Notes under the pieces: model-generated | Database searches by the model: none | Seen by the model: only the letters and a program-made list of their open reading frames with translations | Told to the model about the DNA's origin: nothing | In this document: one piece after another, positions 7,988 through 19,408 of the stretch | Layout of the letters: each line of letters begins with the position of its first letter | Position numbering within the stretch: position 1 is the stretch's first letter | Translations under genes and position numbers: made by a program | DNA from: Promethearchaeota archaeon | GTDB lineage: Archaea; Asgardarchaeota; Lokiarchaeia; Sigyniarchaeales; SOKP01 | Assembly (NCBI GenBank): GCA_013375475.1 | Contig: JABXKD010000046.1 | Location: 1-29,572, forward strand | DNA length: 29,572 bases | Reading direction: 5' to 3'

Positions 7988-8055
7988 ACCCCAACCTTAG
8001 CAAGGTTGTCCCCATGTATCAACGATTTTTATACATGAGTCATCCATTAAGGGGT
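7988..8055 (-). promoter_or_regulatory. SECIS element (eukaryote-like, 3' UTR) for the selenoprotein at 8055-8564
   Basis: The minus strand after the stop reads ACCCC-UUAAUGG-AUGA-CUCAUGUAU-AAAAAUCGUUG-AUACAUGGG-GA-CAACCUUGCUAAGGUU-GGGGU. This gives an AUGA/GA core (8043-8040 and 8010-8009), a 9-bp upper stem with one G-U, an A-run opening the apical loop, and a lower ACCCC/GGGGU stem. Confidence 0.85.
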
Positions 8056-8564
8056 TATAACTTTTCGTCAATTATGGTAGTCATCATTTTTATCGAAGGC
8101 CTATCCGTCTTATCTTTTCCAATGTAAGTCCATACGATTTTTCTATCCTTGTTTATCAGAAACTTGCTAGGAACTGCTTGTTTAATGTTTAACGATCCTC
8201 CTCCGCCGGGAGCAAACCAATAAACATCGTAATCTTTAGCTATTTTTGCTCCGCGATCAGAGATGATATCGACATTAAAATTGTTTTCTTCCTTAAATTT
8301 TCTTAGTAGTCTTTCACTATCACTTGTGATTGATATTAACTTAATGTTCCTGCTCTCAAATTCTTCGATGTTTTCTGTTAGTAGATGCAAATGCTTTTTA
8401 CAGTGACTTCACCAATTTCCCCGAAAGAAATCAATTAGAACTCCGTCGTACTCTTCAAGTAAGTTTTCCAAGTTCATTTCTTTTCCATAAACATCTGTAG
8501 TGTCAAAGATAGGTGCTATCGAACTCACTGGTAAACCGTCAGGCCTAGGCGGTTCTTCGTTCAT
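8055..8564 (-). CDS. Peroxiredoxin-like (AhpC/TSA, thioredoxin fold) selenoprotein, Sec at codon 52 (UxxC)
   Basis: ATG at 8564 reads MNEEPPRPDGLPVSSIAPIFDTTDVYGKEMNLENLLEEYDGVLIDFFRGNW[TGA 8411-8409]SHCKKHLHLLTENIEEF... and continues in frame into the listed 8055-8390 ORF, 169 aa in total. The TGA replaces the first Cys of the family FxRGxWCxxC motif. Confidence 0.92.
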
Positions 8565-18025: not shown

Positions 18026-18469
18026 ATGGTTCAAAAAAATTCAGAAAAATTGCCGAGTAATTCAATAGAAGCTCAAGGTTTATTAATAAAAGAGTTTTAC
18101 AAAAAATTCGGAAAAGAAGCACTACCTATTATAGAAACGGTTTGTGGAAAACAAGGTCGTGCCTTAGGCTTAAAAATAATGAAAAAGTTACCAGATAATA
18201 AATTGACAACAGTAGCACGGGCTTTTTCAAAGAGTTATAATCCTAATTTTGTTAAGATTATTTCTATTTCAGACGAAAATTTTCATATTCAAGGTACCAT
18301 GTGCCCTTTTGGTCTTGAGAATACATCTAGGGCGTTATGTGAAGCCGTTATGGCAATCGATCGTGAGTATTTTCGCGAAGCAGTGAGCGATAAGATCGAA
18401 CTTAAGATTCTTAACACTGTTGCGGCAGGAGATTTACACTGTGATACAATTTACACTCTTAAAGAATAA
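18026..18469 (+). CDS. ATC-hydrolase/V4R-like small ligand-binding domain protein
   Basis: 147 aa. CPFG...LC......D and T.AAGD.HCD cysteine pattern. Confidence 0.6.
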   Translation: MVQKNSEKLPSNSIEAQGLLIKEFYKKFGKEALPIIETVCGKQGRALGLKIMKKLPDNKLTTVARAFSKSYNPNFVKIISISDENFHIQGTMCPFGLENTSRALCEAVMAIDREYFREAVSDKIELKILNTVAAGDLHCDTIYTLKE

Positions 18470-18527
18470 CGTGCATATATAGGATTAAAAACAAAGAAGT
18501 AATAAATAAAAATAAAATTATGAATGG

Positions 18528-18626
18528 TTATTGAGTTTCTCCATACTTCTCTTTCCAGATTTGATCGTTAATTTGTAATTCCCTTCTCTGGACTTTCCCA
18601 ACAATAGATTTAGGGTTTTCATTCAT
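18528..18626 (-). pseudogene. Remnant 3' end of an acyl-CoA ligase paralogue
   Basis: 18528-18620 matches 21608-21700 at 83 of 93 nt by hand count, with the first 33 nt identical. Encodes MNENPKSIVGKVQRRELQINDQIWKEKYGETQ* versus EIPKSMVGKVQRRELQINDPIWKEKYGETQ*. Confidence 0.85.
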
Positions 18627-18654
18627 AATTTCGTTTTAAATTTGGTTTGGTGAG

Positions 18655-18717
18655 ATGTGGCTAACCTTCTAAAAGTAAATATCATTTATATTTTCAATTT
18701 ACTTTTTCCAAACACAT
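18655..18717 (-). promoter_or_regulatory. Candidate non-canonical SECIS element in the 3' UTR of 18724-19191
   Basis: The minus strand reads AUGUG-UUUG-GA-AAAAGUAAAU-UGAAAAUAUAAAUGAU-AUUUACUUUU-A-GA-AGGUUAGC-CACAU. This gives a perfect 10-bp upper stem flanked by GA on both sides (one extra A), AAAA in the loop, and a 5-bp lower stem. The 5' core is UGGA rather than AUGA. Confidence 0.6.
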
Positions 18718-18723
18718 TTTTTA

Positions 18724-19191
18724 TTATATTTTCTCTAATATTTCAAATATTTTTTCATTTTTAGGAATATCTTGCATGCTATCTCCATAATAAGCGAATT
18801 GAATAATACCTTGCTTATCAACGATTAACATTCCAGGCATCCTTCCTCCTTTGGATAACTTTATCTCTTGATTCAGCATTTTTGGCACTTTTTTTGAGGG
18901 ATCATAGAAAATTGGATATTTTCGAGCATATTTTTCTTCTAGCTTCTTCGCATTTTTTTCAGAATCTGCTAAGATCGGATATATATAGGTTTCCAATTCT
19001 TCGAATTTTTCATAATCTTTTCTTAAATGTGCTGCGTGCCATCTACAGTAAGGTCAATTGATATTTCGAAACAATACGACGACAACTTTCTTCTTGCCTT
19101 CGAGAGCTCTTATATTTATTGTTTCTCCTCTCGAATTTGGTAATGAAAACTCTTGGATTTTCTCACCAACGATTTGAAATTTATCTTTCAT
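18724..19191 (-). CDS. Peroxiredoxin-like (AhpC/TSA) selenoprotein, Sec at codon 46 (UxxC)
   Basis: ATG at 19191 reads MKDKFQIVGEKIQEFSLPNSRGETINIRALEGKKKVVVVLFRNIN[TGA 19056-19054]PYCRWHAAHLRKDYEKFEEL... in frame with the listed 18724-18996 ORF, 155 aa in total. The TGA sits at the first Cys of a CPYC-type motif. Confidence 0.92.
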
Positions 19192-19408
19192 TTAATCTCA
19201 CAGATTATTGTTTTTCAAAATATTTTATAGTAGAATATAATAAATAAATGCTTCTTATAAGTTATAGATTTAGGAAAAAGGAAAACATCTCCCTTGTAAG
19301 AAATTAATTCACTATAGAACAATTGATTTACTTAGTGTTAATTTATAAAACAATTATTCAATATTAGGATAGAGATAAAAAAATAGATAAGAATTATTTC
19401 TGTATTAA

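Follow-up and report, generated by a model that had tools for sequence, protein, structure and literature searches.

The "Prx-like" (PrxL) proteins of the Loki archaea have been described by Mariotti et al. (2016, PMC4989117) as carrying a thioredoxin-type UxxC redox box, where U is selenocysteine (Sec), and no further Cys; according to Huang et al. (2024, PMC11227280), Prx-like selenoproteins occur in 43.2% of the Sec-using Asgard archaea, and a peroxiredoxin (Prx) selenoprotein is reported from Sifarchaeia and Jordarchaeia by Sun et al. (2021, PMC9723677). The Sec insertion sequence (SECIS) that has been published for PrxL, VhuU and HdrA-VhuD, the lokiSECIS, consists of AUGA, a 9-bp stem, an 11-nt loop with adenines first and G last, and GA; a 2026 review (PMC13188914), in its accessible parts, lists just type I and type II eSECIS-like forms. 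The subject of this work is a PrxL gene in a stretch of 29,572 nucleotides from Promethearchaeota archaeon (GenBank assembly GCA_013375475.1, contig JABXKD010000046.1, positions 1 to 29,572), hereafter the window, together with a three-helix RNA element that follows its stop codon. The gene itself is not new, because its family is the published Asgard PrxL selenoprotein, of which the earlier note on this DNA, made by a model from the letters alone, was unaware. What appears to be new is the element in the 3′ untranslated region (UTR), which is non-canonical and strongly conserved (the supplements of the published papers, which we have not seen, may list it), and which is probably the SECIS of this PrxL subfamily.

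A Prx-Like Gene Interrupted by TGA

On the minus strand, a frame runs from ATG 19191 to TAA 18726-18724 over 155 codons, with the TGA at 19056-19054 (codon 46) as its sole in-frame stop; the translation around the break is MKDKFQIVGEKIQEFSLPNSRGETINIRALEGKKKVVVVLFRNIN-TGA-PYCRWH..., with the motif F-R-N-I-N-U-P-Y-C-R-W-H. The sequence reads as the earlier note had described it, namely as a hidden selenoprotein whose frame, opened by ATG 19191, is broken only by this TGA, followed by PYC and continued in a listed open reading frame (ORF) of 90 aa. Indeed, the ORF list holds just this downstream piece (18724..18996, minus strand, start TTG). The features of the coding region are:

18724..19191, minus strand: predicted Prx-like (AhpC/TSA fold) selenoprotein gene, 155 codons and TAA (from PF00578, orthologues and selection)
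19054..19056, minus strand: in-frame TGA, codon 46, putatively read as Sec, first position of the U-P-Y-C box (from orthologue conservation)
19045..19047, minus strand: codon of Cys49, second Cys/Sec position of the redox box (from the 2cx3 alignment and the sequence)

When read through, the 155-aa protein matches the Pfam domain AhpC-TSA (PF00578) with 83.2 bits (gathering score 26; E 1.9e-23), and the match spans the TGA, residues 8-132 lying on profile positions 1-123 of 124; Redoxin is matched as well, with 65 bits. The nearest solved structures are BCP/PrxQ-type peroxiredoxins (3drn, E 2.3e-7; 2cx3, E 6e-6; 2ywn, E 1.8e-5). In the alignment to the Aeropyrum BCP 2cx3, U-P-Y-C stands opposite S-P-V-C, so that Sec would occupy the Ser/Thr place and Cys49 that of the peroxidatic Cys; the Sec site is located three residues before the peroxidatic-Cys position, where classical Prx has Thr/Ser. 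The TGA had been assigned to the catalytic site: it does fall in the redox box, but not at the peroxidatic-Cys position. Since Sec replaces the conserved Thr/Ser, the T/S-x-x-C peroxidatic motif of the classical BCP/PrxQ peroxiredoxins is absent, and the active site would rather be of the thioredoxin-like UxxC type. Cys49 is the sole Cys of the protein, which is therefore Cys-free outside the redox box.

Our best explanation, which as a whole we regard as likely, is that the gene codes for a thioredoxin-fold, peroxiredoxin-like thiol oxidoreductase of an Asgard archaeon (Promethearchaeota, Lokiarchaeia-type), an origin that the earlier note had guessed rightly. Codon 46 UGA would be decoded as Sec and, in the U-P-Y-C box, Sec would attack and Cys49 would resolve; going by the fold, the best guess at the substrate would be a peroxide or a disulfide.

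Conservation of the TGA and Selection on Both Sides

Within the same family, a homologue was found in 39 of 61 genomes (42 matches, 49-79% identity), and all 42 matches have an in-frame TGA, 41 of them one and the remaining match two. In the orthologues extracted from 30 loci the TGA always falls in one alignment column (31/31), far more regularly than chance would allow, which speaks for the selenoprotein reading put forward earlier; the box is U-P-[Y/F/H]-C in 29 of these 31 genes, U-P-Y-A in one and U-P-Y-S in another. The open frames of the same-family homologues measure 155-197 aa.

In named public assemblies 132 stretches encode relatives, and the counts for named species given throughout rest on the best 80 of these 132. 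The 80 are labelled Promethearchaeota/Promethearchaeia, Freyarchaeota, Jordarchaeia and Borrarchaeum, with some Hermod-, Thor-, Hod- or Odinarchaeota, and they take in two cultured species, Promethearchaeum syntrophicum MK-D1 and Ca. Lokiarchaeum ossiferum, whose orthologues have the TGA. A stop is found at the Sec site in 81 of the 85 tblastn segments of these loci, the other four being adjacent paralogues or cut pieces. The count of UxxC against CxxC forms that had been proposed as a check gave UxxC in 66 of the 81 Sec-bearing segments, with UxxA in 12, UxxS in two and UxxT in one; no orthologue with a Cys codon at the Sec site was found, either among the named loci or in a sample of 301 genomes taken across the phylum. 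This sample yielded 70 matches in 62 genomes, with one TGA in 62 matches, two in five and none in three; two of these three are fragments short of residue 46 and the other is a full-length paralogue, so that 67 of the 68 matches covering the site contain the TGA. The TGA column is thus kept at 49-88% protein identity, in at least six families of the phylum.

Some members depart from the common form. L032:295-765, L049 and 12 of the 85 segments represent a subclade with U-P-Y-A (or S/T), Cys-free, with Sec as the sole redox residue; this would be a "1-Sec" form, needing an external thiol for recycling. Members with two TGA codons have the box U-M-H-U (G007:C130:4094-4558, also L161; G157:C4; G148:C4), which implies a diselenide, and they keep the non-canonical element. 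In many orthologues (L022-L025, L027, L030, L033, L034, L037, L038, L042, L046-L048) the codon opposite the window's ATG is ATT, ATA or ATC, their true starts lying elsewhere or being non-standard. Two contigs under bacterial labels of metagenome-assembled genomes (MAGs), L140 and L142 (Deferrimicrobium, Nanopelagicaceae), carry the Asgard gene and element and are probably mis-binned.

Selection was estimated by the Nei-Gojobori ratio of nonsynonymous to synonymous substitution rates (dN/dS), the synonymous rate (dS) being usable in nine of 12 pairs. Of these nine, eight have a dN/dS of 0.047-0.135 downstream of the TGA and one has 0.344; the upstream values lie at 0.046-0.255 in eight pairs and at 0.957 in the remaining one, which is near-identical and has a dS of 0.04. 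The comparison of the two sides, which the earlier note had suggested, accordingly indicates purifying selection on both. As for the codon itself, TGA is an ordinary stop in this organism: it ends 207 of the 1641 open frames of at least 300 codons in the genome and three of the 23 long ORFs in the window, and it is also the terminal stop of three orthologues; TGA is not reassigned in the genome.

These data bear on the simplest alternative, in which the locus is a pseudogene, or a pair of small ORFs, one of 45 aa and the other starting at TTG 18996 and 90 aa long, and the TGA a true stop. Such a reading would agree with the behaviour of standard gene callers, which would list the 90-aa ORF alone; it is refuted by the conservation of the TGA column over this range of identities and families and by the purifying selection on both of its sides, to which the single Pfam domain spanning the stop can be added, and we give it practically no credit.

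Selenocysteine Machinery of the Genome

The assembly comprises 3.92 Mb in 288 contigs, with 32.5% G+C. The Sec machinery, on whose presence the selenoprotein reading had been made to depend, is represented by two selD genes that score over the curated cut-off and both contain one in-frame TGA, by a SepSecS match of 380.9 bits, by a PSTK-like gene (167.8 bits, under the curated 290.5) and by a SelB/EFSec-like gene (226.3 bits, under 242.25), the last on a 2.9-kb contig.

It could be supposed that near-cognate decoding inserts one of the standard amino acids (Cys, Trp or Arg) at UGA46, a view favoured by the fact that tRNA-Sec was not located in the assembly and that selenium in the product is deduced from the sequence. 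We consider this highly improbable, since the codon opens a CxxC-type box, a site at which Sec and Cys as a rule replace each other, and still a Cys codon was found there in none of the orthologues; moreover, SelD, SepSecS, PSTK-like and EFSec-like genes are kept, other UGA genes with a canonical SECIS are present, and UGA is an ordinary stop elsewhere. Selenocysteine is thus the preferred reading of codon 46: given the conserved TGA column, the low dN/dS on both sides, the use of TGA as a stop otherwise and the presence of the Sec genes, the gene is to be regarded as a bona fide PrxL selenoprotein gene, ordinary for its lineage.

Canonical SECIS Elements: Present Elsewhere, Absent Here

A strict scan of the genome for lokiSECIS gave matches at 8043, behind the other PrxL gene of the window, at C221:11178 and at C224:4531; the element at C221:11178 follows a gene pair which by eye resembles HdrA and VhuD with UGA codons. 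The other PrxL gene and its element served as comparators:

8058..8564, minus strand: other predicted Prx-like selenoprotein gene, W-U-S-H-C, TGA at about 8409-8411 (from alignment)
8003..8051, minus strand: canonical lokiSECIS of that gene: AUGA, 9 bp, AAAAAUCGUUG, 9 bp, GA (model R3, 60.2 bits)

The TGA of this gene (8564..8058, minus strand; G-N-W-*-S-H-C) falls in the same alignment column as that of the gene under study, confirming the homology of the two sites on which the earlier note had built its case. The "expanded family" of Sec redox proteins that the note derived from them is real as to the two TGA genes but modest in size: of the four AhpC/TSA genes in the genome, two carry TGA, and both of these lie in the window.

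As a control, a covariance model (R3) was built from 11 canonical elements. All 20 loci searched for the other PrxL family gave a match with it, and at E<=1 none of the 30 loci of the gene under study did; of its five matches in its own genome, none lies behind this gene. The weaker of these matches are at C282:10099-10146 (plus strand, 35.1 bits) and C50:42-89 (plus strand, 33.1 bits). A relaxed scan of 18300-19260 on the minus strand, which looked for hairpins between AUGA/GUGA... and GA, brought up no convincing candidate; in the 220 nt behind the stop of the 31 orthologues there were just two 7-bp chance matches and no canonical SECIS; and a looser pattern scan over 110 loci of the family returned three matches, none of them on the strand of the gene. 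Rfam at gathering thresholds found nothing in the whole window, and on the locus at E<=10 it gave three chance-level matches (GNAS-AS1_3, TYMV_upPK, WT1-AS_5).

The canonical AUGA...GA elements of this genome (8003-8051, C221:11170-11218 and C224:4491-4539) are followed by one C and then by a second small hairpin, after which a lower stem closes; because of this second hairpin and the lower stem, they too are three-way junctions. By eye, the two selD 3′ UTRs on C155 have the same layout of lower stem and second hairpin. This hairpin is not mentioned in the accessible parts of the published accounts of Asgard SECIS.

The lokiSECIS at C224:4491-4539 (minus strand; R3, 61.2 bits) directly follows a 64-codon ORF (C224:4542-4733, minus strand) with an N-terminal hydrophobic stretch and a C-terminal G-G-G-G-U-P-S-T-C. 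Its homologues occur in nine of the 61 family genomes, all of one genus (8 of 11 genomes besides its own), with one TGA each; it may code for a small genus-specific membrane selenoprotein or, alternatively, its TGA may be a plain stop.

The Three-Helix Element in the 3′ UTR

In place of a canonical SECIS, the gene under study is followed by an element with the following parts:

18634..18719, minus strand: three-helix element, candidate variant SECIS, starting 5 nt past the TAA (model R2, 63.8 bits, E 2.7e-10)
18708..18713, minus strand: P1 5′ strand, GUUUGG, pairing with 18645-18650 (helix 1 98.9% paired, 4 compensatory pairs)
18697..18706, minus strand: P2 5′ strand, AAAAGUAAAU, pairing with 18671-18680, in the place of the lokiSECIS AUGA and 9-bp stem
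18681..18696, minus strand: P2 apical loop, UGAAAAUAUAAAUGAU, A-rich; its 5′ UGA and 3′ AUGA could make tandem G.A pairs
18671..18680, minus strand: P2 3′ strand, AUUUACUUUU (from fold and pair counts)
18653..18667, minus strand: P3 hairpin, AGGU-UAGCCAC-AUCU (4/4 stem pairs compensatory)
18645..18650, minus strand: P1 3′ strand, CCAAAC (from fold and pair counts)

The consensus of 80 species reads, from 5′ to 3′, G-AUUUGG (P1), one unpaired nucleotide, nnGAAUAAAAU (P2), the A-rich apical loop, AUUUUAUUCnn (P2), nA, AAGU-UAGCCAn-ACUU (P3), nn and CCAAAUC (P1). The element has 24% G+C and, in the orthologues, begins at the stop codon or within about 10 bases of it. In the P3 loop UAGCCA, the U, the G, the first C and the last A are invariant (80/80), and letters two and five are unchanged in 78 of the 80; in the same alignment all 11 pairs of P2 show compensatory changes.

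Model R2 was obtained from a five-sequence seed with a hand-drawn structure, onto which 31 sequences were realigned before the model was rebuilt, because a plain MAFFT alignment is not structure-aware; on such an alignment RNAalifold recovered the small P3 hairpin alone. Over the 22 pairs, the 31 sequences gave 95.6% paired cells, with compensatory changes in 16 of 22 pairs and none of 500 shuffles as good, while sliding the partners by 1-3 columns reduced pairing to 33-56%. The 80 named-species sequences, together with two spurious rows, gave 95.9%, 19 of 22 pairs and again 0/500. Single-sequence folds of minimum free energy (MFE) of distant members, labelled Frey-, Jord- and Borrarchaeum, yield the same three helices unaided.

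In its own genome R2 has one match, at 18719..18634, among the 150 scored candidates of about 9128; in the family it has 75 matches in 71 of 121 genomes, one or two in each, among 38 candidates scored per genome. When loci were fetched through the RNA alone, the gene ended about 10 nt upstream in 30 of 30. The element is present in 77 of the 80 named loci, and in three loci a second copy stands behind tandem paralogues, each tandem Sec paralogue having its own copy. The three loci missed by R2 are those of MK-D1, L. ossiferum and one MAG, whose diverged elements have the same layout, with P1 UCAAAC/GUUUGA and a P3 loop UGCCCA or UGCCCU. In the tandem pair of G348, the paralogue with U carries the element (56.3 bits), and behind its Asp paralogue (G-L-M-D-L-F-C) none was found at E<=1 with filters off.

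The core of the lokiSECIS is replaced by ordinary pairs. There is no AUGA 5′ of the main stem: the window has UUUGGA, and the consensus n-n-G-A is fully base-paired. Nor is there a GA/AA on the 3′ side, where the partner is U-C, forming G-C in 64 and A-U in 63 of the 80 sequences. The 5′ half of the P2 base is still n-G-A (G in 72/80, A in 67/80), and its 3′ U-C partner covaries to A-U and G-C. With these letters, the tandem G.A pairs of a kink-turn cannot form at the base of the hairpin.

The apical loop measures 12 nt in 19 of the 80 orthologues, 15 in 18, 16 in 13, 13 in 12 and 11 in five. In the window copy the stem measures 10 bp and the loop 16 nt, with U as its last letter; many orthologue loops are A-rich and end in ...UGAG. 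Both a 5′ GA and a 3′ RUGA are found in the loop of 31 of the 80, including the window copy and those of the most distant classes, and neither half in 13.

Is the Element a SECIS?

As we envisage it, recoding would be directed by the three-helix element that begins 5 nt after the stop codon (18719..18634). The main parts of the canonical SECIS of the lineage, namely the lower stem, the long hairpin whose apical loop is A-rich and the small second hairpin, recur in it; in this subfamily, ordinary pairs (nGA with UC) stand in place of the AUGA/GA core, and the small hairpin has the invariant UAGCCA loop. The result would be a family-specific variant of SECIS, which the Sec machinery would recognise by other features than the usual basal core. 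That the element is indeed the SECIS of the PrxL subfamily, working without a basal AUGA/GA core, seems to us probable, since it is the only conserved structure available, has a lokiSECIS-derived layout and co-occurs with the UGA.

The gene could also be a selenoprotein gene whose 3′ element is a terminator, a stability element or another regulatory structure, the Sec signal lying elsewhere or the requirement for it being relaxed. In keeping with this, the long hairpin has no AUGA/GA core at its base, and the element is located at the extreme 3′ end of the gene, followed by T-rich sequence, which would suit a terminator or 3′-end structure. Two RNA-library contigs, both from one run, stop at the edge of the element (18634/18635), but this is weak support, as contigs cannot show RNA ends. 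Yet no other conserved structure and no canonical SECIS was found within the loci, the layout and the apical-loop consensus (A-rich, ...UGAG) are those of the canonical elements of the sister family, the element comes in an own copy for each tandem Sec paralogue and in none for the single non-Sec paralogue, and a mere terminator needs no invariant 6-nt loop across several Asgard classes. We therefore judge a role other than Sec insertion to be unlikely, and the SECIS function remains the preferred one.

Several points weigh against our explanation as a whole. The GA quartet is essential in eukaryotic SECIS, so that an element without it at the usual place is an unexpected SECIS. The association of element and UGA rests on one non-Sec paralogue, both pair-count alignments were fitted to the model structure and thus favour it, and R2 was scored on just 150 of the roughly 9128 first-look candidates of its own genome and on 38 per genome in the family. 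The fold of the window copy is better than that of shuffles by a modest margin only (z -1.40, 17 of 200 shuffles being as good); its MFE fold contains P1 and P2, and the P3 stem is weak. The matches of PSTK and EFSec fall below cut-offs curated for bacteria or methanogens, and ARAGORN and RF01852 found no tRNA-Sec in the 288 contigs: RF01852 reached at most 27 bits, its gathering score being 47, and the top-ranking candidates were ordinary or intron-bearing tRNAs. This last miss could be explained by the features of the Loki tRNA-Sec reported by Mariotti et al. (2016, PMC4989117), which has a 31-nt intron in the T loop, possibly defeating the model, and lies about 6 kb from EFsec. Finally, both Sec in the protein and SECIS activity of the element are predictions from sequence.

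A broader reading, which we advance tentatively and as a whole, is that one cell reads two structurally different Sec insertion signals, the second being a core-less three-way junction class kept across at least six Asgard families. In many lineages, the window included, the apical GA...RUGA might then be a circularly permuted core, a "k-loop": as the apical GA and RUGA are found together in 31 of the 80 loops, a G.A/A.G core could form atop the hairpin, in the polarity of a canonical SECIS. The UAGCCA loop, rather than a kink-turn, might be the handle for an archaeal SECIS-binding factor; it contains GCCA, the same letters as the G discriminator and CCA end of tRNA-Sec. In the stronger form of a universal relocated apical G.A core this idea was rejected, because both halves are found in 31/80 and neither in 13; it is kept as a hypothesis and not as a finding.

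Two other candidates for the missing core or partner were discarded. The AUGA just before P1 is partly made by the tandem stop TAA-TGA, and its GA partner is absent. A pairing of the P3 loop GCCA with the UGGC of the Trp-His codons near the UGA does not hold, as the UPYA/UPYS subclade, which has no Trp, keeps the loop.

No published description of a core-less or junction-type Asgard SECIS, or of the UAGCCA loop, was found in the accessible parts of the literature; the supplements of Mariotti et al. (2016) and Huang et al. (2024) may class these genes as SECIS-less or as having a minor form.

Genomic Context, Sequencing Data and Significance

The gene is preceded by an enoyl-CoA hydratase gene and followed by a convergent ORF, in a region of acyl-CoA-type metabolism which gives no functional clue; the convergent ORF (147 aa, window 18026-18469, plus strand) had no Pfam match at E<=1e-5. 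Parts of the stretch are held by 20 of 24 listed sequencing runs, mostly of marine-sediment DNA. Contigs from four RNA-library runs, belonging to three studies, cover 18563-18939, that is the element and the coding sequence after the TGA, and none covers 18940-19260, a gap to which no weight can be given; these are a hint of transcription only, as contigs cannot show transcription, strand or ends and DNA was possibly present.

Gene callers split or truncate the gene, and selenoprotein finders based on AUGA...GA will miss it. For the link between SECIS and ribosome in Asgard and other archaea, from which no SBP2 homologue is known, this genome offers a natural contrast, with two related Prx-like selenoprotein genes 10 kb apart, one followed by the canonical core and the other by a core-less element with an invariant loop. 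The occurrence of gene and element in the cultured MK-D1 and L. ossiferum provides a direct handle for laboratory work. If the element were not a SECIS, a widely conserved selenoprotein would be made without a recognisable one, which would be equally informative.

Comparison with Known Systems

With the BCP/PrxQ peroxiredoxins (3drn, 2cx3, 2ywn) the protein shares fold, length and the position of Cys49 on the peroxidatic Cys; it differs in that the Thr/Ser three residues before this Cys is Sec. As for the element, it is found in the 3′ UTR like the SECIS of the Methanococcales, whose G+C-rich 10-bp stem, GAA/A bulge and short all-GC upper stem are, by reading of folds and consensus, features that it does not have. 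The 3′ UTR location and an A-rich apical region are also common to the eukaryotic SECIS, which has a kink-turn core, AUGA_GA, bound by SBP2; any G.A core of the element would cap the hairpin instead of sitting at its base. According to the accessible parts of the published papers, no SBP2 is known in Asgard archaea.

The closest relatives of the gene are the PrxL selenoproteins (PMC4989117, PMC11227280), with which it has in common the AhpC/TSA fold, a UxxC box with Sec first, and UxxU in some relatives. As in these proteins, the sequence is Cys-free outside the box and a signal structure lies just 3′ of the stop; both are found in genomes of the Lokiarchaeia, Sifarchaeia/Borrarchaeales and Jordarchaeia type. 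In the published descriptions, the PrxL elements are always AUGA/9-bp/11-nt/GA, which fits the other PrxL gene of the window, unlike the gene under study. The family of that other gene comprises both UxxC and UxxU forms (one TGA in 20 matches, two in 12, three in one). Its combination of both forms with the canonical element makes it the family to which the published PrxL.1 (UxxU) and PrxL.2 (UxxC) most likely belong.

The element is also close to the lokiSECIS, or Asgard eSECIS-like type I. Two differences set it apart: the base of its hairpin has nGA on the 5′ side with UC, not GA, on the 3′ side, and R3 scores it in none of 30 loci; and the loop of the second hairpin is fixed as UAGCCA, while the sequence of this hairpin varies in the canonical elements. 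The two also have features in common: each stands right after the stop of a UGA gene and has a long hairpin, about 10 bp in length, whose loop is A-rich and in many cases has ...UGAG as its end; like the hairpins of this genome's canonical elements, it is set between the lower stem and the small second hairpin. Indeed, the apical loop of the sister family, AAAAAAAUGAG, is A-rich and has the ...UGAG end that is found in the new element of many species.

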